DNA of 43,005 bases from Clostridia bacterium (GTDB taxonomy: Bacteria; Bacillota; Clostridia; Christensenellales; Aristaeellaceae): NCBI GenBank assembly GCA_045617085.1, contig JAZLHZ010000066.1, positions 1-43,005 on the forward strand, written 5' to 3'. This document shows positions 3,229-41,462 of this stretch, one piece after another (position 1 is the first letter of the stretch; every line of letters begins with the position of its first letter). The notes under the pieces are model-generated. The model saw only the letters and a list, made by a program, of their open reading frames with translations, ran no database searches and had not been told where the DNA came from. The position numbers were made by a program, and so were the translations under genes.

Positions 3229-5040
3229 ATGAAAATCATACGTCCGCCCAAATATCTGACCCGTCTGATCTGTACCTGTTTGCTGCTTTCACTGCTGCCG
3301 TGTGTCCTGCTGCTGGGCATGACGGTAGTCAATTCGTATGGTAGTATGCAGACGATGAATGAGGAATACTATTGGGAAATTACGGATTCCTTTATGCGGT
3401 ATGCGGATGACGAACTGGCGGCTATGCGAGGTATGGCGACCCGGCTTAGTGTGGATTCCAAGCAGAACATCGGCACCAATGCGGCGTTGAACTTCGAGAT
3501 CGGTTCTTCGAACTACTATTACTGGATGGCGGCAAAAGAACTGCCGGAGTATGCCCGTACATACGGCTACAATGCGGCCCTCTATCTGGAGGAGTCCGGT
3601 GAACTTTTGTACAGCACCCGCAAATATAATTCCTTTGCATCCTTTTATGCAGATATGAACAAAGGAAACAAAACGGTGCCGCCGGAGGTCGAGACGTTCT
3701 TTGATATGGATATGGCGGGAATAAGGTTTGCCTCGATCGATAACAAGCTGCTGGTGGGTGTGCCTTCCTATGTGGGTTCTGTCAAGAACAGCGTGTTGGT
3801 GGTATTTATATTGGAAGGCTCCTGGGCGGATGCAGGGAATTTTGCCGGTGCCGGTGCAGCCTGTTCCCAGTTCCGCATCTATAATGACGATGGCGGACTG
3901 ATGTTGACCAGCGGAGAAGAATTGAGTATTGAAGAGGCGGATTTTTCAATTCCTGAAAGAGACGGAGAGGTGAAACGCCTTTCTTCCGGTAAGAATTGGT
4001 ACACTGTTTACATGCGCAGCAGTCCATCACAGAAACTGAAGTTTGTCACGATCGTGCCCTTTGACAATCTGGAGATCAGCATGTATCGCTTCTATACCAC
4101 GATGAAGCTGACATTCGCTCTGGAGATTCTGCTGGTACTGCTGTTGGGCGTGTGTATGGTGTATATTAATTACCTGCCTGTGCGCAGATTTTCGAGGGAA
4201 GTGCCCGGGAGCGGAGATGGTGACGAGTTCGGCGGTGCAGCCGAGTACATTAAAGACCTGCACTCCGATCTGTCCGAGCAGAAGATTCTTTTGATGGATT
4301 ATCTGATGAACAATCTGATCGGCGGAGCGTCGGTACCGGAGGAGATCCTGACAAGAGCGCATATCGAGAAGACCAACAACTGCTGTGTTATGGTGTTGTT
4401 TGACCGCAGCGTGAATACTGTGGATCGGACAGCGTTGTCGAAGCTGCTGTGGGAAGATTTCGGAGTGACGGCATTCGTTACCGATATTCTGGGCAGCAAC
4501 CGCATGGTCATTCTGTGCCTGATCAAGGATAATGATATTTCATCTGCAGAACATGCAGTCAGGGAATGGATGACCACACATGTGGCATATCCCATCGAGC
4601 TGAAGGTGGGACCCGTGGTGGGCATGGATGCCATTCACGATTCATATACGGCATGCCTGCCGGTGGAAGCAAATGATGAGGGCAGTGATGTCCGAATACT
4701 GAAGCTGAAAAACGAGGTGCTGGCATATATCGACGATGTGTATACCGATGCCGGTCTCAGCCAAGTAAGCATTGCCGACAGGTTCGGCATATCGACCTAC
4801 TCACTCAGTCGCCTGTTCAAAAATCATGTGGGCATCGGATTCTCGGAATATGTGTCCGGCAAGCGGCTGGATATGGCAAAAACATTGCTTCTGACCACCG
4901 ATCTGAATGTCGGCGAAATTGCCGGACAGGTTGGAATTCCCAATGCAAACTATTTTTCAAGACTGTTCAAGACCAACACGGGAGTATCCCCGATGCAATA
5001 CCGACACAGCGAAAAGAATGAGGAGGATGGAATCAAATGA
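3229..5040 (+). CDS. membrane-anchored AraC/XylS-family transcriptional regulator with an extracytoplasmic sensor region
   Basis: 603 aa. Hydrophobic segments near residues 12-33 and about 290-315 bracket a roughly 260-aa loop. C-terminal double HTH: LSQVSIADRFGISTYSLSRLFKNHVG..VGEIAGQVGIPNANYFSRLFKTNTGVSPMQYR. AGGAGC RBS. Confidence 0.85.
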   Translation: MKIIRPPKYLTRLICTCLLLSLLPCVLLLGMTVVNSYGSMQTMNEEYYWEITDSFMRYADDELAAMRGMATRLSVDSKQNIGTNAALNFEIGSSNYYYWMAAKELPEYARTYGYNAALYLEESGELLYSTRKYNSFASFYADMNKGNKTVPPEVETFFDMDMAGIRFASIDNKLLVGVPSYVGSVKNSVLVVFILEGSWADAGNFAGAGAACSQFRIYNDDGGLMLTSGEELSIEEADFSIPERDGEVKRLSSGKNWYTVYMRSSPSQKLKFVTIVPFDNLEISMYRFYTTMKLTFALEILLVLLLGVCMVYINYLPVRRFSREVPGSGDGDEFGGAAEYIKDLHSDLSEQKILLMDYLMNNLIGGASVPEEILTRAHIEKTNNCCVMVLFDRSVNTVDRTALSKLLWEDFGVTAFVTDILGSNRMVILCLIKDNDISSAEHAVREWMTTHVAYPIELKVGPVVGMDAIHDSYTACLPVEANDEGSDVRILKLKNEVLAYIDDVYTDAGLSQVSIADRFGISTYSLSRLFKNHVGIGFSEYVSGKRLDMAKTLLLTTDLNVGEIAGQVGIPNANYFSRLFKTNTGVSPMQYRHSEKNEEDGIK

Positions 5041-7142
5041 ATCTGAAACAGGCAAAATGGATCGGCTGCCGGGACTATACGGGCTCGCCGATGTTTGAAA
5101 AGAAGCTTATTATCGAAAAGATGCCGGACTCGGCGGTCATGGAAATCAGCGGTCTGGGCTTCTATGTGCTTTCCGTCAACGGGAAAAGGGTGGGGGATGC
5201 GTTGCTTCAGCCGGCATTTTCCACTTATGACAAGACGGTGTACTACAATGTACTCGACCTGAAGGACTACCTGAGCGAGGGTGAAAACGTCTTCCGGGTG
5301 GAATTGGGCAACGGCTGGTACAACGAGGAGCAGGCCAATGCCTGGCGTTTTGAGCAGGCGACATGGCGGGACAAGCCCAAGTTCATCTGCGAACTGAAGC
5401 TGGACGGTGAGACGGCGCTGGTGTCGGATCGGAGCTGGAAGTGCGGCAGCAGTCAGCGGTCATTCAACTCGCTGCGCTGCGGCGAGACGATCGACCACCG
5501 GATCGTACCGGTGCTCGACCGGGACGCCTCCGTGGTATTGCCGCCGATGGGCGATTTGAAGGAGCAGACGATACCGCCGATCCGGGTGCGGCGCAGGATC
5601 GAGCCGAAAGAAGTGCTGTGGCATCATGAGGGTGTGCGGACCTATGACTTCGGTGTCAACCTGTCCGGCGACGTGGAGATCCGTGCGAGGGGCAGCCGGG
5701 GCGCAAAGATCACCGTTATCATGTGCGAGCAGATCATGGATGACGGCGGTGCGGTCATGGAGCGCATTGGCGAGCATGTATATTCCAAGCGCTTTCAGGA
5801 GGACGAATTCATCCTCTCCGGCGAGGGCGAGGAGGTCTTCAGCGGCGAGTTCAGCTATAAGGGCTTCCGGTATGCGAGGGTGTGGTACTCCGGCGAGGTT
5901 GAAATTCTGGACGTCTGTGCCCGTCAGTTCCATACCGATCTGCCTGCGGCGGGCGGCATCACCACCGACTATGCGCCCGTACAGCAGCTGCATGATGCGT
6001 GTGTGCAGTCGACACTGACCAACTTCCACCATATGCCTACGGACTGTCCTCACCGGGAGAAGAACGGCTGGACCGGCGATGCGCAGCTTTCCTGCGAGCA
6101 GATGCTGTTCAATCTGGATATGTTTCCGGCGTATGACAAGTGGCTGGACGACATTGCGGACTGCCAGAAGCCCTGCGGCATGATCCCCGCCATTGCGCCC
6201 ACGAGCCTGTGGGGATACAAGGAGTGCAGCGGGATCAGCTGGGATCTGGCGCTGTTCGAGCTTCCGTGGCAGATGTACCGGTATTCCGGTGAGGTCAGGT
6301 GGCTGGAAAAATGGTACGGCAACATGCGCCGCTATATCGATTATATGGAGGCAACGGCGGTAGACCACGTCAGCGTGATCGGCTTGGACGATTGGGTCCC
6401 GGATGAGCGGACGCACGCCATTCCGAGGAACGCATTGCTGACAGGCTGCGCCTACCGGGCGGCGACGATCTATCTTGAGGCGGCAAGGCTGCTGGAAAAG
6501 AAGGAAGATATTTCCCGTGCCGAACATCTGAAATCGGATATCAAAGAGGCGTTTGAAAAGAATTTCTGCGGCAGCGATTACGGCAGCTCCACATATCTGG
6601 GCATGGTGCTGATGTACGGCCTGGCGAAGGATCCGCAGGCCGCCGCCGCAAGGCTCAACGAGGTCATTATCGGAGAGAACTACCACATCACCGGCGGTAT
6701 CTTCGGCTCCAAGTACATTTTGAACGCCCTGACGGAGAACGGATACTTTGACACCGCATGGAAGATCGCCGACAATGAAGAGGCACCCGGCTGGCGGTTC
6801 ATGCTGACCCGGACCGGCGGCAGCACGCTGGGCGAGGGCTGGCGGGGCGGCTCGTCGAGAAACCATCACATGTTCTCGGAGATCGGCGCCTGGTTCTACA
6901 AGGCGCTGGCGGGCATCAATATCACAGAGCCCGGTTTCCGGCAGGTGGACATCGTGCCGCACATTCCCGAAACGGTCCGCACCTTCAGCGCATGGCATGA
7001 TACGCCCTGCGGAAGACTGATTGTCGGCTGGGATGAGAATGAGCTCACCGTGACGGTGCCCGAAGGCGTGAAGGCGCATCTCGTGTTTGACGGGATCGAG
7101 AAGGATATTTCTGCACAGACTATAAAGATACGGAGGAAATGA
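5037..7142 (+). CDS. alpha-L-rhamnosidase (GH78 family)
   Basis: 701 aa. Hallmark six-hairpin region MPTDCPHREKNGWTGDAQLS (GH78 consensus DCPxRxExxGWxGD). No signal peptide. ATGA start/stop overlap with the AraC gene. Confidence 0.85.
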   Translation: MNLKQAKWIGCRDYTGSPMFEKKLIIEKMPDSAVMEISGLGFYVLSVNGKRVGDALLQPAFSTYDKTVYYNVLDLKDYLSEGENVFRVELGNGWYNEEQANAWRFEQATWRDKPKFICELKLDGETALVSDRSWKCGSSQRSFNSLRCGETIDHRIVPVLDRDASVVLPPMGDLKEQTIPPIRVRRRIEPKEVLWHHEGVRTYDFGVNLSGDVEIRARGSRGAKITVIMCEQIMDDGGAVMERIGEHVYSKRFQEDEFILSGEGEEVFSGEFSYKGFRYARVWYSGEVEILDVCARQFHTDLPAAGGITTDYAPVQQLHDACVQSTLTNFHHMPTDCPHREKNGWTGDAQLSCEQMLFNLDMFPAYDKWLDDIADCQKPCGMIPAIAPTSLWGYKECSGISWDLALFELPWQMYRYSGEVRWLEKWYGNMRRYIDYMEATAVDHVSVIGLDDWVPDERTHAIPRNALLTGCAYRAATIYLEAARLLEKKEDISRAEHLKSDIKEAFEKNFCGSDYGSSTYLGMVLMYGLAKDPQAAAARLNEVIIGENYHITGGIFGSKYILNALTENGYFDTAWKIADNEEAPGWRFMLTRTGGSTLGEGWRGGSSRNHHMFSEIGAWFYKALAGINITEPGFRQVDIVPHIPETVRTFSAWHDTPCGRLIVGWDENELTVTVPEGVKAHLVFDGIEKDISAQTIKIRRK

Positions 7143-8236
7143 CCATGGCAGAATTCGGAATCAACGTATTCGACTTCGGCGCAAAGGGCGACGGCATCAC
7201 CGATGATACCGCTGCCATTCAGAGCGCCATCAACTATGCCGCCAAGAGAGGCGGCGGAAGGATACTTTTCCCCTATACGCCGGACGGCTACCGCATCGCT
7301 TCGCCGGGCATTGAGGAATATGAGGGCAGACAGGTGCGTGCACAGCTGATCATCCCGCCGGGAAGGCACAACATCTGCCTGATGGGCGAGATGCCCTGCT
7401 GCCTGCTGTACACCTATCAGGTGCGGCCGCTGGACTCCGTCAAGTCCAACTTCACGCCGACCTATATTGACGACATGGGCCGCATCAATACCTTCCTGTT
7501 TTCCGACTGGGAGGCGCCCGAGGAGCATGATCCCAAGGCCCGTCCGTGGTCGATACTTGCCGCTCCCGAGGGAGATTCCTGCAAGGGACACTTCTCCTGC
7601 CGGATGTTCTCCATCGCCAATCTGGAGTTCCGGGCGAAAATGACGAAGGAAAAGATGTATCCCACGCAGGGCGCCGTCAACCTGCAGAACGTGTCCCGCT
7701 GCAATGTATCCGACAGCCAGTTCTGCCTTGGCCTGAACGTGGGCGATACGGTACTGAATCTGGAGCTGCAGCCCAACCCCTGCCACGTAGTGGGCTTCAT
7801 GGGCCCCGGCGATCAGAACGACAACGTGGTGATCCGCAATTGCGCTGCTCAGGGCTTCAAGTACGGCTTCGTGCTGGGCGAGCATGTGGTGGCGGACTAT
7901 CTGTATGTGCATAACAATGAGGAGGCCATCGTGTTCCACGACTGCTCCCACTTGTCGGTCATCAACCATGTGGTGGCGCAGCACAATACCTGCATTCTGT
8001 CCACCACGAGGGGCACGATGCTGGGCCACGAGCCAGGCCCCTGCAACGTCATCGTCGGGTCGGTCAACTTCGAGGACGGCCATCGCCTGAAGCCCGTCGT
8101 GTCTCAGATGAAGTACGGTATCTATGACCCCGAGGAGCGGCTGACCGGCGAGCTGTGCTGGCACGAGCCCTGGGGCGACAAGGAATTCCCCGTCGTCGGT
8201 GCAAGCAAGATGAAGGTAAGAGTGTTCGGCGAGTAA
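7139..8236 (+). CDS. right-handed beta-helix glycoside hydrolase / pectate-lyase-superfamily protein (GH28-related)
   Basis: 365 aa. N-terminus FGINVFDFGAKGDGITDDTAAIQSAINYAAKRGGGRILFP is typical of Pectate_lyase_3 / GH28-related proteins. No signal peptide. ATGA overlap with the GH78 gene. Confidence 0.65.
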   Translation: MTMAEFGINVFDFGAKGDGITDDTAAIQSAINYAAKRGGGRILFPYTPDGYRIASPGIEEYEGRQVRAQLIIPPGRHNICLMGEMPCCLLYTYQVRPLDSVKSNFTPTYIDDMGRINTFLFSDWEAPEEHDPKARPWSILAAPEGDSCKGHFSCRMFSIANLEFRAKMTKEKMYPTQGAVNLQNVSRCNVSDSQFCLGLNVGDTVLNLELQPNPCHVVGFMGPGDQNDNVVIRNCAAQGFKYGFVLGEHVVADYLYVHNNEEAIVFHDCSHLSVINHVVAQHNTCILSTTRGTMLGHEPGPCNVIVGSVNFEDGHRLKPVVSQMKYGIYDPEERLTGELCWHEPWGDKEFPVVGASKMKVRVFGE

Positions 8237-8308: not shown

Positions 8309-8923
8309 TCAGATATTGAGCAGGGTGGAGACTCCGGAGCAGATCCTGCTGACGAGTCCTGCAACGTCGGAAGTCATGCCGCCGAATACGCTTTCAACGG
8401 CTGCCAGCGTATATTCCACGTTGCGGTTGCTGCTGCCGCCCCGGAACCTGCCGGTACGGATGAGCTCGTCGATGTAGCTCTGCGCCCTGCTGTTGATCTG
8501 GCCTGTGGTGCCCTTCGGGAGAGCGGATTTGACGATATCGATGGTCAGGGCCACCGAGACCTTGACGATCTTCTGATCGGAGGTGTAGTATCCGCACTGA
8601 CAATCGTGGATGGTGTTGAGGGTATTGCCGAGGGGAACCGTGGCGCCCAGTACCATGCGGACGAAATTCTCCAGCGGGGTGGCCAGCTGACTGTAGACAT
8701 TGGCGGGCTGGTCGGTCAGATCGATGCGGCCGTCCACGATCTCACGGATGGCCTTGTCGAGCTCGTCCTCTTCCGTACCGTTTTCGGAGGAATACTCCGT
8801 CATGTCGATCCGCTTGGAGAGAACGTCATTGATGGAGGGGACATCCTCCTCCGCCAGTGCAGCAGAGGTAAGGCACAGCGCCAGCACCAGGAGCAGGGAA
8901 AGCAGTTTCTTGATATTTTTCAT
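8309..8923 (-). CDS. secreted hypothetical protein (204 aa)
   Basis: Internal ATG at 8923 of track ORF 8309..9373, with AAGAGG upstream. N-terminus MKNIKKLLSLLLVLALCLTSAALA/EE is signal-peptide-like. The upstream part of the track ORF overlaps gnd out of frame and is Arg/His-rich junk. Confidence 0.6.
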   Translation of the reverse strand: MKNIKKLLSLLLVLALCLTSAALAEEDVPSINDVLSKRIDMTEYSSENGTEEDELDKAIREIVDGRIDLTDQPANVYSQLATPLENFVRMVLGATVPLGNTLNTIHDCQCGYYTSDQKIVKVSVALTIDIVKSALPKGTTGQINSRAQSYIDELIRTGRFRGGSSNRNVEYTLAAVESVFGGMTSDVAGLVSRICSGVSTLLNI

Positions 8924-9036: not shown

Positions 9037-10419
9037 TCATTCCATCCATTCCGTATGATACGCTTTGCCTGTGTCGTCGTCGCTGCGCTGATAGGTGTGC
9101 GAGCCGAAGCAGTCCCGCTGCGCCTGGATCAGGTTGGCGCCGGAGCGCTCCAGCCGCATGCCGTCGAAGTAGGCCAGAGCGGAGGACAGCGCCGGGACGG
9201 GGATGCCGTTCATTACGGCAAAGGCGCAGATGTTCCGCATGCCGCCGATGCTTTCCCGGAGCTCTTCGGCGATGGCGGGATCCGCCAACAGGGAGTCGGG
9301 CTTTTTGCTGCCGTTGTATGCGGCTGAGATCTGATGCAGCAGTTTGCTGCGGATGATGCAGCCGCCCTGCCATATTTCGGCGATGGCGTGCAGGTCCGCA
9401 TCCGTGGCGGAGGAGATCAGCGAGAAGCCCTGCGCATAGGCAATGACTCTGCCGCAGAACAGCGCCTTTTCAAGGTCGTCCGTGTCAACGGCGCCGTTGA
9501 CGGGAGCTGCGGGATAGACCGCTGCCATCTGCCTGCGGGAAGCGAGGTTTGCGGAAAGGCAGCGGGCCAGCACTGCCTCGGTGATCAGCGTCAGGGGCTG
9601 AGCATAGTTCAGCGCTGCTTCCGAAGCCCATTTGCCGGTGCCCTTCTGGCTGGCGGTATCCAGCACATGATCGATCAGGTCATCTCCGGTCAGCTCGTCC
9701 TTCTTTTTCAGTATTTTGCAGGTGATGTCGAGAAGGTAGCTCGAAAGCCTGCCGTTTCCCGCCTGTGCAAAGAAGGCGGCGATTTCGGCATTCGTTTTCC
9801 CTGCCGTGCGCAGGATCAGATACACCTCGGCGATGAGCTGCATATCACCGTATTCGATGCCGTTGTGCACCATCTTGACGAAGTGGCCGGTGCCTCTGCT
9901 GCCCATATAGGCGCAGCAGGGGCCGTTTTCTGCTTTGGCACAGACGGCGGTGAGTATCGGTGCCAGCTCCCGATAAGCTTCGATCTCTCCGCCGGGCATG
10001 AGGCAGGGCCCGTTCAGGGCGCCCTCGCTGCCGCCGGAAACGCCCATACCGACAAAACGGAGACCCTTTTCCCGAAGCAGGGCGTACCTGCGCTCGGTAT
10101 CGAGGTAGTTGGAGTTGCCGCCGTCAATGACGATATCGTCCTTCTCCAGCAGAGAAAGCAGCTTTTCCAGCATCTCGTCCACGGGGGAACCGGCGGTGAT
10201 CATCAGCCAGATCTTCCTCGGCGTTTCGAGGGAGGCGACGAACTCCGCAAGGCTGTATGTGTCGCTGATGCGAGGAGAATATCCTTTTTCAATGAACTCT
10301 TTGACATATTTTTCCGGCTCGATATTGTAGACCGAGACGGAGAAGCCCTTCGAGGCGATGTTGCGGGCGATGTTGCCGCCCATCACGCCCAGACCGATGA
10401 CGCCGATATCGTTTTTCAT
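9037..10419 (-). CDS. gnd: 6-phosphogluconate dehydrogenase (decarboxylating)
   Basis: 460 aa. N-terminal Rossmann motif IGVIGLGVMGGNIARNIASKGF and full-length family-like sequence. GAGGTG RBS overlaps the upstream stop. Confidence 0.9.
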   Translation of the reverse strand: MKNDIGVIGLGVMGGNIARNIASKGFSVSVYNIEPEKYVKEFIEKGYSPRISDTYSLAEFVASLETPRKIWLMITAGSPVDEMLEKLLSLLEKDDIVIDGGNSNYLDTERRYALLREKGLRFVGMGVSGGSEGALNGPCLMPGGEIEAYRELAPILTAVCAKAENGPCCAYMGSRGTGHFVKMVHNGIEYGDMQLIAEVYLILRTAGKTNAEIAAFFAQAGNGRLSSYLLDITCKILKKKDELTGDDLIDHVLDTASQKGTGKWASEAALNYAQPLTLITEAVLARCLSANLASRRQMAAVYPAAPVNGAVDTDDLEKALFCGRVIAYAQGFSLISSATDADLHAIAEIWQGGCIIRSKLLHQISAAYNGSKKPDSLLADPAIAEELRESIGGMRNICAFAVMNGIPVPALSSALAYFDGMRLERSGANLIQAQRDCFGSHTYQRSDDDTGKAYHTEWME

Positions 10420-10422
10420 GCT

Positions 10423-11475
10423 TCACCTCACGACACGGGCATTGCCGTTCCAGATGCTCCATACCTGCTTTTCGTCCGAGGGCGTGGCGTAGTCCTCCAG
10501 CGTCGTGACCGCCAGCGCACCGGTAGCCCAGCCGAACTGCAGGCACTTTTCGCTGTCCCAGCCGTTTAGCAGTCCGTACAGCAGACCGCCGACAAAGCCG
10601 TCGCCGCCGCCGATGCGGTCCAGCACCGGGATTTCCCTCGAAGCAGCCACATAGAAATCGCCGTCCCTGCACAGCAAAGCGCCCCACCGGTGGGTGTTGG
10701 CATTGATGACCTGGCGCAGGGTCGTGGCATAGACCTTCGTGTTGGGGAAACGCTTGCGTACCTCGGCCAGCATGTCCCGGAAGGAGCTTTCGTCCAGACT
10801 GCTGTTGACAGCGGGCCCCTCGATGCCCAGCGCCAGCTGATAGTCCACCTCATTGCCGATCAGGATGTCCGACAGTGAGGCGATCTCCGTGAATGCCTCC
10901 CGCAGCTCCTTCTGGCGGTTCTTCCAGAAGGATTCCCGGTAGTTGAGGTCAAAGCTCACGAGGGTGCCGCTCTTCTTTGCCCGCCGGGCCAGCTCCACAC
11001 AGCACTTGGAGGTGCTTTCGGAGATGGCGGCAAACAGGCCGGACATGTGCAGGCAGCGCACGCCGTCCACGTCGAACAGCGTATCGAGGTCGAAATCGGA
11101 GGCACTGGTCTGTGCGCCCACCTCGCCGGCACGGTCGTTCCATACGTGCGGCGCCCGCACGCCGTAGCCGGTATCCGCCATGTTGATCTGATGACGGTAG
11201 CCCCAGGGTCCGCCTTGCGGCACGTCTCTTCCCTCGTATTCGATATTCCTGCGGCGCAGCTCGCCCTTGATGAAGGCGGACATGGGACAGCCCTCGACAA
11301 AGGCCGTCAGCGCCTTGGTGCGCAGTCCCAGACTGGCGGATACGTTCAGTACATTGCTTTCGGCACTGGTCGCCTGCAGCGTGTAGGTCTTTTCCATGCC
11401 CACCGGCGCATGATTGGCGGGGGTCATGCGCAGTCCCATGCTGGTGACTGCGATCAGGTCATACTTTTTGCTCAT
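10423..11475 (-). CDS. PfkB-family sugar kinase, 2-dehydro-3-deoxygluconokinase-like
   Basis: Start moved to the ATG at 11475 (MSKKYDLIAV..), preceded by AGGAGG. C-terminal PfkB signature DRIGGGDGFVGGLLYG. Confidence 0.8.
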   Translation of the reverse strand: MSKKYDLIAVTSMGLRMTPANHAPVGMEKTYTLQATSAESNVLNVSASLGLRTKALTAFVEGCPMSAFIKGELRRRNIEYEGRDVPQGGPWGYRHQINMADTGYGVRAPHVWNDRAGEVGAQTSASDFDLDTLFDVDGVRCLHMSGLFAAISESTSKCCVELARRAKKSGTLVSFDLNYRESFWKNRQKELREAFTEIASLSDILIGNEVDYQLALGIEGPAVNSSLDESSFRDMLAEVRKRFPNTKVYATTLRQVINANTHRWGALLCRDGDFYVAASREIPVLDRIGGGDGFVGGLLYGLLNGWDSEKCLQFGWATGALAVTTLEDYATPSDEKQVWSIWNGNARVVR

Positions 11476-11495
11476 GCGGAAACCTCCTGTTGAAA

Positions 11496-11590
11496 CGAAC
11501 ATACGGTTAAATTATACAAGAACACCTGTTTGCTATTTACAAGAACACTTGTTCTGTGGTATAATACATACAAAAAGAACAGATGTGCGA
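11496..11590. promoter_or_regulatory. divergent promoter region with four tandem GAACA-N2-TGTTC-like (LexA/Cheo-type) boxes
   Basis: Boxes: cGAACAtacgGTTa (11496-11509), aGAACAccTGTTTg (11519-11532), aGAACActTGTTCt (11542-11555, perfect 6-2-6 palindrome), aGAACAgaTGTGCg (11576-11589). Plus promoter: TTACAA (11537-42), 17 nt, TATAAT (11560-65) with TGg. Minus promoter -10 TATAAT is plus 11511-11516, preceded by TG. Confidence 0.5.
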
Positions 11591-11604
11591 AATGAGGGAG
11601 CAAC

Positions 11605-11844
11605 GTGATCGAGCGGATCTATGTGACGGTGTATGCGGTGTTTGACGAGCGGGGAAACATGCGCCCCAGCAGTCTGGTATGGAAGGGTGAAAAGCGGTAT
11701 ATGATCGATAAGGTGACGGAGCTGCGCCGTATGCGGGAAATGGACCGCTATACGGTGATCATCGGCGGGAAGCAGCGCTACCTTTTTTTCGAGACGAAGA
11801 TCCGCCGCTGGTATGTCGAGCGCGCCTTATCAGTTGTTTGCTGA
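11605..11844 (+). CDS. small basic hypothetical protein (79 aa)
   Basis: GTG start with GAGGGAG 5 nt upstream, downstream of the boxed promoter. No TM segment. About 17 K/R versus about 10 D/E. The last 86 nt overlap the convergent 5'-nucleotidase gene. Confidence 0.45.
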   Translation: MIERIYVTVYAVFDERGNMRPSSLVWKGEKRYMIDKVTELRRMREMDRYTVIIGGKQRYLFFETKIRRWYVERALSVVC

Positions 11845-13696
11845 CCTGTACGATAAAGAGGATGATCACTACGAGCAGCAGCAGGATGCCGAGAATGAGC
11901 CATACGTAATGGGAGGGATGGCTCAGCAGGTGGACAAGGTTCCAGCAGCTGTCGACGACTTTTCTGCCGAGGGGCTGTGCATATTTTTCGGGGATCTTTC
12001 CGCCGTGGGAGGCGGTATAGTCGGCGATGGCGACCCAGGCCTTGAGCTCCTCGCCGTCTGCGGTGATGGCGGCGTCGGGCAGGTCATCAATGGGGTCTCC
12101 GTTCTTATCCTTCAGCTCGATGCGGATGAGGCCGTAGGAGAAGCTCTTGACGGCGGCCAGCATCCGGGCGGAATACAGGTCGCTGACCACGCAGTAGAGC
12201 TTGCCCTTTTCTGGGGCGATCCGTTCGCCGTCCTTTTCCAGATACAGGTCGCTGACCATGTTGAGGAGCGTGCGGTGGGGATTGAAGGTGAAGTTGAGGC
12301 CGGAGGTATGCAGGCGGGCGTAGGTCAGGAAATCCGACAGGGACGCATCGATCTCGGCGATGGTGCGCAGCTCGTCGGCATTGACATAGACCGCCAGCAG
12401 GGGATAGCCCACCACGCCGTCAAAGCCCTTGCCGAGGGAATACATATTGAAGGTGTCGGCGGTGGTGACATCGCCGGGGTACAGGGTGTCCCGGATGACG
12501 CCCGCCGGGGCGATCGTCACGTCGGGAATGATCTCGCCGTCGGTGAACAGCGGCACTGCATACATGAAGGCGTCCGCAATGTATTCGCCGAGGTTGTTTT
12601 CCTCGTGCAGACCGTAGCTGTCGTCCACGGTGGCGAACTTCACATCGTTGACGGCCAGCACCTGATCGGTGGTATAGCCGAAGCGGGAAAGGTATTCTTT
12701 GTCGATAAGATCGGCATATCCGTTCAGCACCCCGACGAGGTCCGGATCCTCCTCGATGTCGGCGCCGAGGCGTTTGACCTCGTATTCGTCCAAGCTCCAG
12801 CGTCCGTCCGGTCCTTGGGTGAGGGAGAGGAGCCCCGCATTCTCGGCATACTCGCCGAAGGAGACGACGTAAGTATTGCCGACGATCTTCGGTTCGGTCA
12901 ATACGGTGTGGGTGTGGCCGCTGATGATAAGGTCCAGCTCCGGCACGGCGGCGGCCAGCAGCTCATCTTCGGACTTGTCCGGGTCGGGATCGGTGCCGCT
13001 GTGAGAGAGGCAGACGATCATGTCTGCATTTTCATTTGCCTTGATTTGGGCAACGGTGCGCTGCACGGCCTCGATCTGGTCGGTAAAGCCCACCTCGCAG
13101 ACGGGGGTGTCCTCCAGACTGCTCTTGCCGAACACACCCAATACGGCGATGTTTACGCCGTTTTTTTCGATCATGGCATAGTCGCTGCCGCCTGCATCCG
13201 CAAAGGCGTCCCGGATGAGGCCGCCGTCTCCGGTGCAGACGGAAAAGTCGATGTTGCATTCCACCAGCGCAGGCGTCGGATAGCCGCACTCCATGGCGGC
13301 ATGCAGCATGTTGGCAAGTCCGTCCGAGCCGTAGTCGAACTCGTGATTGCCGAAGGTCACGGCGTCATAGCCCATGTAGCTCAGCAGGCTCAGCTCCAGC
13401 GCATGGCTCTCGTACAGCGCCTGATACAGCGTGCCCATGGAGAAGTCGCCCGCATCCAACAGCAGAAGGTCGGGATCCTTTTCCCGCTGCTCCCGGATCA
13501 GTGTGCTCAGCCGGGCGAGTCCGCCTTCGTGAACGGGCTCATCGTCACGCAGATACTGAAAGCCCGAAAGATGGGAATGGATGTCGTGCGTGGCGATGAC
13601 GGATACGTGTTTGGGTTCGCCTTCGCCCAGACAGAAACCGAAGGACAACAGGGACAGGACGAGACAGAAGCAGAAAAAGCGCTTGAAAGACTTCAT
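11759..13696 (-). CDS. bifunctional metallophosphatase / 5'-nucleotidase with signal peptide and C-terminal membrane anchor
   Basis: Start moved to the ATG at 13696 (MKSFKRFFCFCLVLSLLSFG..), preceded by GGAGGAA. Motifs ATHDIHSH, LLLDAGDFSMGT, GNHEFDYG, ISGHTH. C-terminal hydrophobic stretch WLILGILLLLVVIILFIV followed by a basic tail. Confidence 0.85.
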   Translation of the reverse strand: MKSFKRFFCFCLVLSLLSFGFCLGEGEPKHVSVIATHDIHSHLSGFQYLRDDEPVHEGGLARLSTLIREQREKDPDLLLLDAGDFSMGTLYQALYESHALELSLLSYMGYDAVTFGNHEFDYGSDGLANMLHAAMECGYPTPALVECNIDFSVCTGDGGLIRDAFADAGGSDYAMIEKNGVNIAVLGVFGKSSLEDTPVCEVGFTDQIEAVQRTVAQIKANENADMIVCLSHSGTDPDPDKSEDELLAAAVPELDLIISGHTHTVLTEPKIVGNTYVVSFGEYAENAGLLSLTQGPDGRWSLDEYEVKRLGADIEEDPDLVGVLNGYADLIDKEYLSRFGYTTDQVLAVNDVKFATVDDSYGLHEENNLGEYIADAFMYAVPLFTDGEIIPDVTIAPAGVIRDTLYPGDVTTADTFNMYSLGKGFDGVVGYPLLAVYVNADELRTIAEIDASLSDFLTYARLHTSGLNFTFNPHRTLLNMVSDLYLEKDGERIAPEKGKLYCVVSDLYSARMLAAVKSFSYGLIRIELKDKNGDPIDDLPDAAITADGEELKAWVAIADYTASHGGKIPEKYAQPLGRKVVDSCWNLVHLLSHPSHYVWLILGILLLLVVIILFIVQVSKQLIRRARHTSGGSSSRKKGSAASRR

Positions 13697-13727
13697 GGCA
13701 ATTCCTCCCCGAATACAGTTTAAACAT

Positions 13728-13756
13728 ATTATACGGTATAAAAGAAAAGTTTTCAA
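13728..13756 (-). promoter_or_regulatory. putative sigma-A promoter of the 5'-nucleotidase gene
   Basis: Minus strand reads TTGAAA (13756-13751), 17 nt, TATAAT (13733-13728). Confidence 0.55.
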
Positions 13757-13805
13757 GCACTGCGGCAATTATTGCAGGAGATAAATCGATTTCTTCCGAA
13801 AACAG

Positions 13806-30955: not shown

Positions 30956-32341
30956 ATGAAAAAAGCACTGAAAAAACTGTTAGACGCCGTCTATTTTGCG
31001 CTGTGTTATGCGCCGGTGGCGCTGCTTCTGGGCTATCTCACCGAAGGCGACGGCTTTGAACTGCTGCTGTACAGCCTTGCGACGATCCCGGTGGCCTTCG
31101 TGATCTCGCTGCTGCCCGGCACACTGGGCGGCAAAAAGAAGCAGCAGGACGTGTTTACCGAGCGCCGTGCCTCTGCCGATCCCGACCCGGACAGAAGTCT
31201 GCGCCGGGATACGCACGAGGATGAGGTGCGCCAGATCACATTCCCTCTGCGGGCGGTGATCTGCGGCATCCTGATGCTGGCGATATTCCTGTACATGATC
31301 GTTTATTATACCGCCTATCTTCAGAGCGAATGGCCGCAGCGTATCATTCAGTCGGCGGTGCCTGCCGCCATGCTGCCTCTGGCGCTGCGCTTTTGTGCGC
31401 TGGGACAGAGCAGTGACGGAAAGAACGCCATTGCGGGCATAGTAATCTATCTCGTGGCGGGCATCGTGGGCATCGGTGTTCAGTCCAAGCTGTATACCAC
31501 GGTGATCGCACTGGCTGCCGGCGCCTTTATCATCACGACCCTGTGGATCGTGAACAATCGGGCGATGCGTCAGGCATCGGCATCCCGTCAGGGCGTGAAG
31601 CCGCCGAAGCAGCTGGTCCGGCGCAACCGTGTCATACTGTGCGTGATCGTGGTGCTGACGGTGCTGATCGCCGAGTTCGGCTGGCTGAAGGAAAAGGCGC
31701 AGTGGCTGTTCCAAAACGCCGTATACTGGATCATAAAGATCATCAACTTCATTACCGACCTGTTTATGGGCGGTCAGGAGGCTTCCTCCTCCGGCGGTGG
31801 CGGCGGAATGGATATGATGGATATGTCCGCCCTCGGCCCGGTGAAGACATCGGCATTCTGGGACAAGCTGACGTATGTGGCGTATGTCGTTGCGGCGATC
31901 GGCGCATTGTTGCTGCTGTATTGGTTCCTGAGGAACATCTATCGTCTGTGTAAAACGCTGGGCGCCGCCATCGGCAAATGGCTGAATCGGTTTGCCCATT
32001 CCGTCGGCGAGGACTACAGCGACGAGCAGGAGAGCCTGCTGAGCTGGGGCAATGTCCAGAAGGAAATGTCCGAAAATATCCGGAAACGGGTCAAAACCAT
32101 GTTCGCCCGGGACAAAAAGTGGGAGGACATGGATGCGGATGAGAAGGCACGCTTTATCGTAAGGGTGCTGTACCGGCGGGCAAAGATCAAGGCCGACCCC
32201 AGAACGATCCGTGAGATCATTCCCCAATTCGGAACCGAACACCCCGATGAAATCGTCAGAATGTATGAGACCGCCAGATATTCCGCCGCTTCTCCCGATG
32301 CGGCGCTGATCGAGCGGCTCAGAAAAGAGAACCGGGTCTGA
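30956..32341 (+). CDS. polytopic membrane protein with a DUF4129-like C-terminal domain
   Basis: 461 aa with several TM segments and a Gly/Ser/Met linker. The C-terminal region KARFIVRVLYRRAKI..IVRMYETARYSAASPD resembles DUF4129, the usual third member of MoxR-DUF58 operons. Confidence 0.6.
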   Translation: MKKALKKLLDAVYFALCYAPVALLLGYLTEGDGFELLLYSLATIPVAFVISLLPGTLGGKKKQQDVFTERRASADPDPDRSLRRDTHEDEVRQITFPLRAVICGILMLAIFLYMIVYYTAYLQSEWPQRIIQSAVPAAMLPLALRFCALGQSSDGKNAIAGIVIYLVAGIVGIGVQSKLYTTVIALAAGAFIITTLWIVNNRAMRQASASRQGVKPPKQLVRRNRVILCVIVVLTVLIAEFGWLKEKAQWLFQNAVYWIIKIINFITDLFMGGQEASSSGGGGGMDMMDMSALGPVKTSAFWDKLTYVAYVVAAIGALLLLYWFLRNIYRLCKTLGAAIGKWLNRFAHSVGEDYSDEQESLLSWGNVQKEMSENIRKRVKTMFARDKKWEDMDADEKARFIVRVLYRRAKIKADPRTIREIIPQFGTEHPDEIVRMYETARYSAASPDAALIERLRKENRV

Positions 32342-34206
32342 TGAACGATACACTGAAACTGAAGATCACCAACCTGCCCACGTCGCCGGGCTGCTACCTG
32401 ATGAAGGACGCCGGGGGCAAGATCATCTATGTGGGCAAGGCGAAAAACCTGAAAAACAGGGTGAGTCAGTACTTCCACAACGGCTACCATGCGCCGAAGG
32501 TGCAGGCGATGGTGGATAAGGTCGAGGACTTCGACATCGTGCTGGTGGATAACGAGCTGGAAGCGCTGATCCTGGAGTGCAACCTGATCAAGCGGCATAT
32601 GCCGTGGTACAACATTCTTTTGAAGGACGACAAGCAGTACCCGTATATCCGCATCGACATGAACGAGCCGTTCCCGCTGACGGAGCTGGTGAGAAAGCCG
32701 GAAAAGGACAACGCCCGGTACTTCGGCCCCTTTATGAGCGCCACCACGGTGCGGGAGATGCTGGACGTCATCCGTACCGAATTTCCGATGCGCACCTGCA
32801 CGATGCAGTTGGAAGAGGGCAAGGCGCAGCGTCCCTGCGTGCATTACGAGATCGGCAGATGTATGGGCCCCTGTACCGGCGAGGTAAAGAGCGAGGACTA
32901 CAAGGCCGTCATGCAGGAGGTCATCCGCTTTCTGGAGGGCGACAGCCGGGGCGTGATCCGCACGCTGACCGACAAAATGAAGCAGGCCGCCGCCGAGATG
33001 AACTATGAACGGGCGGCGCTGTACCGGGACCGCATCAACGCCGTCAACACCGTCATGGAGAAGCAGAAGGCGCTGATCGTCGGCGGTGCAGATCAGGATA
33101 TCCTGTGCCTGCTGCCCTGCGGCGACGACATGCTGATCGAAGCGCTGACGGTAAGGGGCGGTAAGCTGATCGGCTCCAGAACACATGTGCTGGAGCGGTG
33201 CAGCGACGAGGCGCAGGAAAAGGTCATGCTGGAATTCATGATCCAGTACTACGGCGAGGGAAATCTCCCGCCGAAGGAGATCATGGTCAGCGTGAAGCCC
33301 GAAGAGGACGAGACACTGACACAGCTGCTGACCGAACAGAAGGGGACAAAGGTAAGCATCCTTCTGCCGCAGCGGGGCGAGAAGCACAAGCTCCTCGAAA
33401 TGGCAATGAAGAACGCCAAGGACGCTTCCGACAAGCGGCTGAAGGCGCTGGAAAACAGAAGACAAAAGACACTGGGCGCATTGGAGGAGCTGCAGCTGGT
33501 GCTGGGCATGGACGTATTGCCCATGCGCATCGAGGGCTACGACATCTCCAACACACAGGGCACCAGCTCGGTGGCGTCCATGGTAGTCATGAAGGGCGGC
33601 AAGCCCTCCAATCGGGACTACCGGTATTTCAAAATTCGTACCGTGGACGGTCCCAACGACTTTGCCTCGATGCACGAGGTCATCACGAGGCGGTTGAGCC
33701 ACGGGCTGCGGGAGATCGAAGAGCGGAAGGCTGCCGGGCAGGATCTGGTCGGCGGACGTTTTTCCGAGCTGCCGGACGTGATACTGATCGACGGCGGCAG
33801 AGGCCAGCTCAAGTATGCGCAGGACGCCATGCATGCGCTGGGACTGACGATCCCGATGTTTGCGCTGGCGGAACGGATCGACGAGATCTATCTGCCGGGC
33901 GAAAACGATTCGATCTATCTGGATCGGCATTCCGAGGCGCTGCACCTCATCCAGCATCTGAGAGACGAGGCGCACCGGTTTGCCATCTCCCATCACCGTT
34001 CTCTTCGGGGCGCAGCGGCGCTCAAATCGAGATTGGACAGCATTGAGGGCATCGGTCCGGTGCGGAAAAAGGCGATACTGAAGCACTTTGAGACGATGGA
34101 AGCGCTGGAAAAGGCGGGTATTCGGGAGCTGTGCGAGGTGGAAGGCATCGCCGAACATACCGCACAGGTCATTTATGATGCCCTGCACGGCGATAAACAG
34201 GAATAA
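32341..34206 (+). CDS. uvrC: excinuclease ABC subunit C
   Basis: 621 aa. GIY-YIG N-terminus GCYLMKDAGGKIIYVGKAKNLKNRVSQYF, central and endonuclease V-like regions, C-terminal HhH (IEGIGPVRKKAILKHF). 1-nt TGATG overlap with the previous gene. Confidence 0.95.
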   Translation: MNDTLKLKITNLPTSPGCYLMKDAGGKIIYVGKAKNLKNRVSQYFHNGYHAPKVQAMVDKVEDFDIVLVDNELEALILECNLIKRHMPWYNILLKDDKQYPYIRIDMNEPFPLTELVRKPEKDNARYFGPFMSATTVREMLDVIRTEFPMRTCTMQLEEGKAQRPCVHYEIGRCMGPCTGEVKSEDYKAVMQEVIRFLEGDSRGVIRTLTDKMKQAAAEMNYERAALYRDRINAVNTVMEKQKALIVGGADQDILCLLPCGDDMLIEALTVRGGKLIGSRTHVLERCSDEAQEKVMLEFMIQYYGEGNLPPKEIMVSVKPEEDETLTQLLTEQKGTKVSILLPQRGEKHKLLEMAMKNAKDASDKRLKALENRRQKTLGALEELQLVLGMDVLPMRIEGYDISNTQGTSSVASMVVMKGGKPSNRDYRYFKIRTVDGPNDFASMHEVITRRLSHGLREIEERKAAGQDLVGGRFSELPDVILIDGGRGQLKYAQDAMHALGLTIPMFALAERIDEIYLPGENDSIYLDRHSEALHLIQHLRDEAHRFAISHHRSLRGAAALKSRLDSIEGIGPVRKKAILKHFETMEALEKAGIRELCEVEGIAEHTAQVIYDALHGDKQE

Positions 34207-39197: not shown

Positions 39198-41462
39198 ATG
39201 CTGCTTACTCAATACATTCAACAGCTGAAAACAGATCCCGCCTTCATGGCCAACGTGACGGCCTGGCGGGAGGTACCCGCCAGAAGCGCCCGGTATGCCC
39301 CCTTTCCCGAGGGCGTGGACAAGCGCATCATCGAGGCGATGGCGCAGCGGGGCATTCACAGCCTGTATACGCATCAGGAACAGGCGGTGCGGTTTTCGAT
39401 GCAGGGAAAGGACATTGCCGTGGTCACGCCCACGGCGTCCGGCAAGACCCTGTGCTATAACCTGCCCGTACTGACGGAAATACTGAAGGACCCGACCTCG
39501 AGAGCGCTGTATCTGTTCCCCACCAAGGCGCTGTCACAGGATCAGAGCTCCGAGCTGTACGAGCTGATCGAGGCGATGCACGAGGAGATCAAGTGCTTCA
39601 CCTATGACGGAGACACCGATGCCGCAGCCCGGATGGCGATACGGCAGGCGGGTCAGATCGTCATTACCAACCCGGACATGCTCCATTCGGGCATACTGCC
39701 GCACCATACCAAGTGGGTCAAGCTGTTTGAGAACCTCAAGTATATCGTCATTGACGAGCTGCACACCTATCGGGGCATCTTCGGCAGCAACCTTGCCAAC
39801 GTGCTGCGGCGGCTCCTGCGCCTGTGTGAGTTCTACGGCTCCCGTCCGAGGTTCATCTGCTGCTCTGCCACTATCCGCAATCCGAAGGAGCTGGCGGAGA
39901 TACTGACCGAGCGCAGCATGACACTGGTAGACGACAACGGCGCACCGGCAGGACGGCGGAACGTCGTATTCTACAATCCGCCCGTCGTGAACCGACAACT
40001 GGGCATTCGGGCCAGCAGTCTTGACACCACGGTGACACTGGCGGAGGGCTTCCTGAAAAACGACATTCAGACCATCATATTCAACCGCTCCCGGGTGCAG
40101 GTCGAAGTTACCGTGCGTCGGCTCAAGGACAGCATCCATGAGGAAGCAGGCAACAGCGGACGTATCCGGGGCTACCGGGGTGGCTATCTTCCCAGCGAGC
40201 GGCGGCAGATAGAAAAGCAGCTGCGTGCAGGGCAGATCAGCACCGTGGTCTCGACCAATGCGCTGGAGCTGGGCATCGACATCGGCCAGCTGGACGTGTG
40301 CATCATCAACGGATATCCCGGTACCATCGCCAGCACCTGGCAGCAGGCAGGCCGTGCCGGACGCAGGGGCGCCGAATCGCTGATGATCCTGGTGGGCAAT
40401 TCCCAGCCCATCGACCAGTATCTGATGGCGCATCCGGACTATCTGATGGGCCAGTCGCCGGAACAGGCACTGGTGAATCCGGACAACCTGTACGTGCTGA
40501 TGGATCACATCAAGTGCGCCGCCTACGAGCTGCCCTTCAAGGAGGGCGAGGGCTTCGGCAGGGCGCAGAGCGTTGCCGAAATGCTGGAATACCTGTGCGA
40601 GGAGAAGATCCTCAACTATGTGGCGGGCAAGTACTATTGGATGGCGGAGGAGTTCCCGCAGGCGGGCATCCATCTGCGCACCGGCGGCGAGCAGAATTTC
40701 GTCATCGTGGATATCACCAATCCCGCCCATCACCGGGTCATCGGCGAGATGGACAGGTACACCGTTCCGATGCTGCTGCACCGGTATGCCATCTATTATC
40801 ACGAGGCACAGCAGTATCAGGTGGAAAAGCTGGACTTCACAGAGAAAAAGGCGTATGTGCGGGCAGTCGACGTGGATTACTATACCGATGCCGATCTGCT
40901 GATCTCGATGAAGGTGCTGGACGAGACCGACAGCCGGGACATGGGCAGTATCCGACGCTGTCAGGGCGAAGTGCTGGTCTCGTACATGACCCGCATGTTC
41001 AAGAAGATGAAGCTGGATACCGGCGAGAATCTCGGCTGGGGAAAAGTGGAGCTGCCGGAGACCGAGCTACAGACCACGGCCTGCTGGTGGGCACTGCCGG
41101 AGGATCTGGAGATCAAGTACGGCAGGGAAGCCGTGCAGGATGCGCTGGTGGGCCTGTGCCATTTGCTGCGGGCCATTGCGCCGCTGCATCTGATGTGCGA
41201 CCGCAGCGACATCGCCGTGACGTATCATGTCAAGGATACCTTTACCGATCGGCCGACCATATTCATCTATGACTGCGTGCCCGGCGGCACCGGACTTTCC
41301 GATCACGTGTATACGATGGAGAAGCAGCTGTTCATCGAGGCACTGGCCAGATTGGAAGAATGTCCCTGCGAGCACGGCTGTCCCGGCTGTGTCGGCGTCA
41401 GCGTCGGCAAGGGAACTAAGGACGTGCTGAAGGCGATCCTGCACGCGATATGTGCGGAATAA
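39198..41462 (+). CDS. mrfA: DEAD/DEAH-box helicase with C-terminal DUF1998 zinc-ribbon domain (MrfA/YprA-like)
   Basis: 754 aa. Motif I TPTASGKT, motif II VIDELH, SAT, QQAGRAGRRG. C-terminal four-Cys cluster CPCEHGCPGC. The symbol rests on architecture only. Confidence 0.8.
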   Translation: MLLTQYIQQLKTDPAFMANVTAWREVPARSARYAPFPEGVDKRIIEAMAQRGIHSLYTHQEQAVRFSMQGKDIAVVTPTASGKTLCYNLPVLTEILKDPTSRALYLFPTKALSQDQSSELYELIEAMHEEIKCFTYDGDTDAAARMAIRQAGQIVITNPDMLHSGILPHHTKWVKLFENLKYIVIDELHTYRGIFGSNLANVLRRLLRLCEFYGSRPRFICCSATIRNPKELAEILTERSMTLVDDNGAPAGRRNVVFYNPPVVNRQLGIRASSLDTTVTLAEGFLKNDIQTIIFNRSRVQVEVTVRRLKDSIHEEAGNSGRIRGYRGGYLPSERRQIEKQLRAGQISTVVSTNALELGIDIGQLDVCIINGYPGTIASTWQQAGRAGRRGAESLMILVGNSQPIDQYLMAHPDYLMGQSPEQALVNPDNLYVLMDHIKCAAYELPFKEGEGFGRAQSVAEMLEYLCEEKILNYVAGKYYWMAEEFPQAGIHLRTGGEQNFVIVDITNPAHHRVIGEMDRYTVPMLLHRYAIYYHEAQQYQVEKLDFTEKKAYVRAVDVDYYTDADLLISMKVLDETDSRDMGSIRRCQGEVLVSYMTRMFKKMKLDTGENLGWGKVELPETELQTTACWWALPEDLEIKYGREAVQDALVGLCHLLRAIAPLHLMCDRSDIAVTYHVKDTFTDRPTIFIYDCVPGGTGLSDHVYTMEKQLFIEALARLEECPCEHGCPGCVGVSVGKGTKDVLKAILHAICAE

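Follow-up and report, generated by a model that had tools for sequence, protein, structure and literature searches.

We infer LexA binding and induction at a 129-bp intergenic region between two divergent genes, located in a 43-kb stretch of DNA from an uncultured gut Clostridia bacterium (the window). The region probably contains two back-to-back promoters under a Firmicutes-type LexA operator array, which would hold a gene for a 79-amino-acid (aa) protein off until DNA damage occurs. Its predicted parts are a consensus site (box 3), boxes 2 and 4 with one mismatch each, and the weak box 1. As long as the DNA is undamaged, LexA dimers on boxes 3 and 4 would exclude RNA polymerase from the strong plus-strand promoter, and RecA-stimulated self-cleavage of LexA after DNA damage would free it. 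A polymerase-associated factor would in this way remain off until needed, as is usual for tightly held mutagenic functions.

LexA-type boxes and promoters of the divergent region

A preliminary description of this DNA had placed four LexA-type 14-mers in the region, and their coordinates and sequences proved to be exact. Compared with the Firmicutes-type LexA core GAAC-N4-GTTC, in which GTTT is tolerated, box 3 (AGAACACTTGTTCT, 11542-11555) is exact and constitutes a consensus LexA/Cheo box with a perfect 6-2-6 palindrome. Box 2 (AGAACACCTGTTTG, 11519-11532), a GTTT variant, and box 4 (AGAACAGATGTGCG, 11576-11589) have one core mismatch each, while box 1 (CGAACATACGGTTA, 11496-11509) has two (GGTT for GTTC) and represents a weak or auxiliary site. 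The GAACA motifs start at 11497, 11520, 11543 and 11577, giving a spacing of 23, 23 and 34 bp. Box 3 is the single exact occurrence of GAAC-N4-GTTC in the 43 kb. The degenerate pattern used earlier (AGAACANNTGTTY) fits boxes 2 and 3 without mismatch and box 4 with one. LexA operators of Clostridioides difficile take the forms GAAC-N4-GTTT and GAAC-N4-GTTC, and the GTTT form is reported at lexA and recA (PMC4234289); box 2 has this same form, in line with the clostridial GTTT variant mentioned in the preliminary description.

To score the boxes independently of the window, a 16-nt LexA-box matrix was used that had been trained on nine sites in other genomes and on none from the window. Among the approximately 43,000 window positions scanned, box 3 ranked first (18.9 bits), box 4 second (13.2 bits) and box 2 third (10.8 bits). 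Box 1 ranked ninth (8.1 bits), a score level that was also attained inside genes elsewhere in the window. The observation of four LexA-type boxes is confirmed; boxes 2, 3 and 4 are the best three matrix matches, and box 1 is weak. Since the intergenic DNA is AT rich (38% G+C versus 56% for the window), the 129 bp itself was also shuffled with its dinucleotides preserved. In 20,000 such shuffles, the top box score was matched seven times and the second-best score once; the third-best score and the sum of four nonoverlapping sites were reached in none of them. The 16-nt direct repeat that had been described for boxes 2 and 3 is real and belongs to a 23-bp tandem unit (11515-11537 and 11538-11560) that contains both boxes. 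Boxes 2 and 3 arose within this tandem duplication (11515-11560), and one copy of its TACAAG contributes to the minus-strand −10 context, whereas the other provides the plus-strand −35.

The intergenic region extends from 11476 to 11604. It is bordered by the ATG of a kinase gene at 11475, with a CAGGAGG ribosome-binding site, and by the GTG start of the 79-aa open reading frame (ORF) at 11605, which is preceded by GAGGGAG. The promoter that drives the 79-aa gene was called by a promoter scan on the plus strand as TTTACA-18-(TG)TATAAT (11536-11565), with 11 of 12 matches and a TG. It is equivalent to the TTACAA-17-TATAAT promoter proposed earlier, except that the scan prefers the form TTTACA-18-TGgTATAAT; the placement of box 3 in the spacer and of box 4 downstream was retained. 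More precisely, box 3 lies between the −35 and −10 elements and box 4 covers roughly +5 to +18 relative to the plus-strand start. On the minus strand, a perfect TATAAT at 11511-11516, read from the sequence, is the probable −10 of the promoter of the kinase-gnd operon. Box 2 lies immediately upstream of this −10, as had been claimed, and thereby inside the spacer of the minus promoter; box 1 covers the position at which the minus transcript is predicted to start. The −35 is poor, however, and the scan of the region did not call this promoter. In addition, the TG abuts the minus-strand TATAAT directly, so that no canonical TGnTATAAT is formed. We consider the minus promoter only moderately convincing. 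Overlap with core promoter elements or the transcription start, as expected of LexA operators, was thus found for boxes 2, 3 and 4.

Conservation could be followed between two haplotypes, namely, the window and the L001 type (L001 to L007); contigs from four DNA runs contained no haplotype beyond the latter. Fourfold-degenerate sites of the kinase gene diverge by 30% from L001 versus 11% for the intergenic region. Only 1 of the 32 box-core positions differs, namely, the one at which box 4 already departs from the core sequence. Boxes 1 and 2 agree with L001 at 14/14 positions each, and the core of box 3 is retained in L001 to L007. Box 4 reads AGAACACATGTACG in L001, with differences confined to the spacer and to the mismatched position. 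The plus promoter is likewise retained in L001, and the minus-strand −10 is AATAAT there. Among the sequencing runs searched, the region was present in DNA runs from gut metagenomes only and in none of the RNA runs.

The 79-aa gene and its protein family

The 79-aa gene (11605-11844, plus strand) encodes a short, divergent member of a family of small all-beta proteins. Neither an exact look-up of the protein nor comparison with Pfam and NCBIfam gave a match (NCBIfam hits at E ≤ 10 were noise), and a word-indexed search returned a single match, a 92%-identical relative in the same synteny. An exhaustive HMMER search recovered 233 representative clusters at E ≤ 1e-3. The members are small (75 to 120 aa), apart from two that reach about 200 aa; these two (P0014, 205 aa; P0023, 195 aa) contain two tandem copies of the domain each. 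The family follows the pattern KVYV.V.A.F..DG...P....WEDG..Y.IDRV ... RYT..I.G...YLFFE ... RWFVE, in which W69 and P21 are invariant and R48, Y49 and W26 nearly so. The window copy lacks two loops of the longer members. Compared with L001, 12 of the 20 substitutions in the gene fall on third codon positions, and 10 codons with synonymous changes stand against 7 with nonsynonymous ones, a pattern that is expected of a coding gene. The ORF is a genuine gene, and the all-beta family to which it belongs is conserved. An AlphaFold2 model built from 46 sequences predicted a six-stranded all-beta fold (pLDDT of 92). A Foldseek comparison with solved structures gave nothing significant (best E value of 0.14, with a weak resemblance to Sac7d/SH3-like folds), and a profile search of PDB sequences with the family found none.

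A convergent 5′-nucleotidase/metallophosphoesterase gene (11759-13768, minus strand) overlaps the 79-aa gene by 86 bp (11759-11844). The nucleotidase ends in a membrane anchor with a 27-aa basic tail; the opposite DNA strand here codes for the C-terminal half of the small protein, which is conserved. The same overlap is present in L001. As there is no terminator between the two genes, induced transcription of the 79-aa gene would read antisense into the nucleotidase gene.

The genomic context of the family was surveyed in a genome scan that yielded 80 family loci, mostly from Oscillospiraceae, Ruminococcaceae, Lachnospiraceae and other Clostridia; neighboring ORFs were clustered and then assigned by Pfam. 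One cluster of apparent neighbors (c13) consisted of antisense artifacts and was dropped. A Y-family polymerase with IMS domains was present in 53 of the 80 loci; a pair of HTH_3 and Peptidase_M78 genes was carried by many loci. In the typical layout, three plus-strand genes (for an XRE helix-turn-helix protein, an M78 ImmA/IrrE peptidase and the family protein) are divergent from the polymerase gene on the minus strand. The family gene directly follows the polymerase gene in four loci. SRAP, Ku/ligase and recA were each found near it in a few loci, and ORFs comprising only a LexA DNA-binding domain adjoin it in about a dozen. Look-ups for short-form members gave one example each of the family gene followed by the polymerase, the polymerase followed by the family gene, Ku with ATP-ligase divergent from the family gene with SRAP, and an orphan among housekeeping genes. 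The window copy is also an orphan and has no adjacent polymerase, LexA, SRAP or peptidase gene.

Aravind, Anand and Iyer (2013, PMC3765255) described standalone ImuB-C domains together with DinB, LexA, SRAP, Ku/ligase and a DUF955 peptidase, and Timinskas and Venclovas (2019, PMC6511836) reported their coupling to YqjH-type polymerases in Clostridia. The homologues of the 79-aa protein have the corresponding neighbors (DinB-type polymerase, LexA, SRAP, Ku/ATP-ligase and DUF955/M78), and the family shows the features of ImuB-C, that is, about 80 to 100 aa, mainly beta structure, a conserved C-terminal Trp with basic residues and no catalytic motif. By this match to the published description in neighbors, size, beta content and C-terminal Trp, the family most likely represents standalone ImuB-C.

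The divergent arrangement of the polymerase gene with the XRE, M78 and family genes recurs as a module (L012, L039, L045, L050, L051, L068, L074, L088 and about 40 more loci), and LexA boxes are lacking in most of them. The module has the look of a counterpart of DdrO/IrrE, in which a damage response would be controlled by a protease and independently of LexA. In two metagenome-assembled genomes of Ruminococcaceae (L014 and L015, region of about 5983-7387), the family gene is followed after about 160 bp by recA, and no LexA-like box was found upstream of recA or nearby. The recA gene of L015 was therefore unusable as a clade reference for the motif. This absence hints at control of recA by the XRE/peptidase module in these two genomes. 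At the polymerase promoter of seven other loci (L041, L073, L084, L072, L067, L083 and L038), mostly near 4885-4908, the box has the variant form CAAC-AAGT-GTTC. Beside the family gene, most of these loci have a small ORF limited to the LexA DNA-binding domain; its product could be a paralogue whose half-site specificity is altered.

Distribution of the boxes and competing readings

The 16.4 kb upstream of family genes contained 6 exact GAAC-N4-GTTC sites and the remaining 716 kb contained 11, corresponding to an approximately 24-fold enrichment. Several of these 11 background sites fall in promoters of polymerase-family operons, which brings the promoter sites of the polymerase-family module to at least 10 among the 17 exact ones. 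In Lachnospiraceae NSJ-143, which was outside the matrix training, AAGAACAAATATTCGT is located 60 bp upstream of an operon in which the family gene follows the polymerase. Polymerase promoters beside a family gene scored at least 12 bits in 13 of 54 cases, compared to 2.5% of random 360-bp windows, a count that is partly circular since 6 of those loci had provided training sites. The training sites mostly read AGAAC-N4-GTTCT and have the same flanks as the window boxes. Tandem boxes were also observed at family modules, with spacings of 24 to 25 bp (L052 and L078), 21 bp (L147), 34 bp (L054) and 64 bp (L030). These data bear out the assignment of the window boxes to the Firmicutes LexA (Cheo) type, as the same boxes precede the 79-aa family in other Clostridia. 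No box was found upstream of the family members of L138, L142 and L144, of most modules of the XRE/M78 type, or in three of the four short-form contexts. Box-less members are thus common, and LexA control would be limited to a subset of the family; a damage-response gene with the same site at its orthologues was found for about one-quarter of the modules. The earlier proposal that the 79-aa ORF is an SOS gene is credible, since its family resides in translesion-polymerase and repair neighborhoods with the same boxes upstream in other Clostridia.

The minus-strand operon begins with a PfkB-family sugar-acid kinase gene (10423-11475), which matched Pfam PfkB and, below the cutoff, the NCBIfam model of a 2-keto-3-deoxygluconate (KDG) kinase-like protein. 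It is followed by gnd (9037-10419), encoding a decarboxylating 6-phosphogluconate dehydrogenase (Pfam 6PGD and NAD_binding_2; NCBIfam gnd equivalog with 572 bits). The last gene (8309-8923), which was called in L001 too, encodes a 204-aa protein with a signal or lipoprotein-like N terminus (MKNIKKLLSLLLVLALCLTSAALA). Adjacent PfkB kinase and gnd genes were found in many metagenome orthologues (L091 to L123) with various G+C backgrounds. This adjacency suggests a conserved pair of a sugar-acid (gluconate-type) kinase and 6-phosphogluconate dehydrogenase, in which the kinase is no classical GntK. The promoters of 30 metagenomic kinase orthologues (55 to 63% identity, many still paired with gnd) contained neither a LexA-like site nor any common motif; the maximum score was 8.3 bits, and most scores were below 3 bits. 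From this we conclude that the boxes belong to the small gene and not to sugar-acid metabolism.

Elsewhere, the window encodes an MrfA-type DEAD-box helicase with an MZB zinc domain (39198-41462) and uvrC (32341-34206). No LexA-like box was detected at the helicase or uvrC promoter, and a matrix match at 33179 lies inside uvrC. The window encodes no lexA and no recA.

The preliminary description had suggested that SOS control may extend to the kinase-gnd-secreted-protein operon. The position of boxes 2 and 1 over its −10 and start speaks for this extension; the box-less orthologues, the weakness of box 1 and the moderate quality of the minus promoter speak against it. Because boxes 2 and 1 cover the sole credible −10 and start of the operon, LexA could co-repress it by promoter sharing, or the two boxes could mainly increase LexA occupancy on the array. 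Judged by its geometry, co-repression of the kinase-gnd operon by boxes 2 and 1 has about an even chance. In a more far-reaching form of this idea, the shared array would place the entry into the oxidative pentose-phosphate pathway (PfkB sugar-acid kinase, gnd and secreted protein) under direct SOS control. DNA damage would then increase the supply of NADPH and ribose-5-phosphate together with an orphan ImuB-C-like factor, which would serve in trans a polymerase whose gene lies elsewhere. We regard this form as rather doubtful.

The same observations bear on the strongest rival of the shared array, namely, that LexA controls the 79-aa gene only, with no SOS regulation of any consequence for the kinase-gnd operon; boxes 1 and 2 would then be auxiliary sites or leftovers of the 23-bp duplication. 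Such a restricted control would agree with the kinase orthologues devoid of LexA-like boxes, with the score of box 1 at the level seen inside other window genes, with boxes 2 and 3 being copies within a tandem unit and with a minus promoter that escaped the scan. It does not readily explain why boxes 1 and 2 are conserved at 14/14 positions in the second haplotype at a neutral divergence of about 30%, or why box 2 abuts the sole good −10 of the kinase operon in the 129 bp. Moreover, the GTTT variant of box 2 is a functional type of clostridial operator. Restriction of LexA to the small gene is a tentative alternative that we take seriously, albeit short of an even chance.

Instead of the housekeeping LexA, the protein that binds the sites could be a paralogue resembling LexA, or a different winged-helix repressor of LexA-like specificity, encoded elsewhere in the genome. 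ORFs comprising only the LexA DNA-binding domain, as well as XRE/M78 pairs, accompany the family in many genomes, and the variant box occurs in loci that carry LexA-domain-only ORFs. However, no such regulator is encoded near the site within the window, and the window boxes fit the canonical core and not the variant. A paralogue is therefore unlikely. It is even less probable that the boxes serve a metabolic repressor (GntR, LacI or KdgR-like) acting on the sugar-acid kinase/gnd operon. This possibility was suggested by the KDG-kinase-like enzyme and its pairing with gnd, and by an ACAAG-N4-CTTGT palindrome, read from the sequence, that overlaps box 3. Enrichment of the motif at sugar-acid genes, which had been named as the sign of a metabolic repressor, was absent from the 30 kinase orthologue promoters, which carry no related motif. 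No regulator gene adjoins the operon, and the motif matches sites at translesion-polymerase promoters; the metabolic reading was rejected after the scan of the kinase orthologue promoters. Finally, a chance cluster of boxes with no regulatory role, as might be favored in promoter DNA of 38% G+C in a window of 56%, is hardly credible in view of the conserved box cores and of a summed score that none of the 20,000 dinucleotide shuffles of the same 129 bp reached.

Significance and relation to known systems

The array in front of the 79-aa gene is a concrete candidate for an SOS operator in a lineage of uncultured gut Clostridia. In addition, a previously unannotated ORF is now linked to a widespread family that accompanies mutagenic polymerases and for which Pfam and NCBIfam have no model. 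If the family is ImuB-C, its loci would be compact models for the licensing of translesion synthesis in anaerobes of the gut, also when antibiotics cause the damage. Co-repression of kinase/gnd, if true, would be a modest case of the SOS response reaching central metabolism by promoter sharing.

The lexA-yneA divergent region of Bacillus subtilis contains three LexA boxes, and its small gene encodes an SOS-induced cell division inhibitor with a LysM domain. Both regions thus have several Cheo boxes in one short divergent stretch next to a small gene, which is SOS induced in B. subtilis and predicted to be so in the window. The partner in B. subtilis is lexA itself; the window instead combines a metabolic operon with a small gene tied to translesion synthesis.

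Like the 79-aa family, for which LexA control is predicted in a subset, the YolD/UmuD′ accessory subunits of Y-family polymerases (PMC6511836) are small beta-rich proteins that are co-encoded with a mutagenic polymerase and controlled by LexA. Unlike these subunits, the window protein and three long-form members of the family gave no match to Pfam YolD (PF08863) or S24, and the predicted fold has no significant PDB neighbor. The resemblance to standalone ImuB-C as described (PMC3765255) comprises the small size, the all-beta structure, the invariant C-terminal Trp, the conserved basic residues and the frequent occurrence in Clostridia. It extends to the neighborhood of DinB/YqjH-type polymerases, LexA, SRAP, Ku/ligase and M78 (DUF955). 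One example of standalone ImuB-C is the damage-induced lexA-imuB-C-polY operon of Geobacter sulfurreducens (PMC3765255; PMC6511836). The window copy differs from the described standalone ImuB-C in being an orphan and in being shortened by two missing loops.

With the LexA (DinR) operators of Firmicutes, including those of C. difficile lexA, recA and uvrB (PMC4234289), the window boxes share the core, the palindrome, the placement relative to −35, −10 and +1, and the presence of more than one site per promoter. They differ in that four predicted sites are spread over two divergent promoters and in that the flanks are A...T (AGAAC-N4-GTTCT) instead of C...G, as is also the case at Y-family polymerase promoters of Clostridia. 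Neither the type and placement of the sites nor the class of gene that they would regulate is of a new kind, and a LexA array in front of a small damage gene is fairly ordinary. What is new is the family assignment of the unannotated 79-aa ORF, the presence of Cheo boxes, often in tandem, upstream of this family in a subset of Clostridia, and the unusually dense four-site array that is common to a small gene and a metabolic operon.
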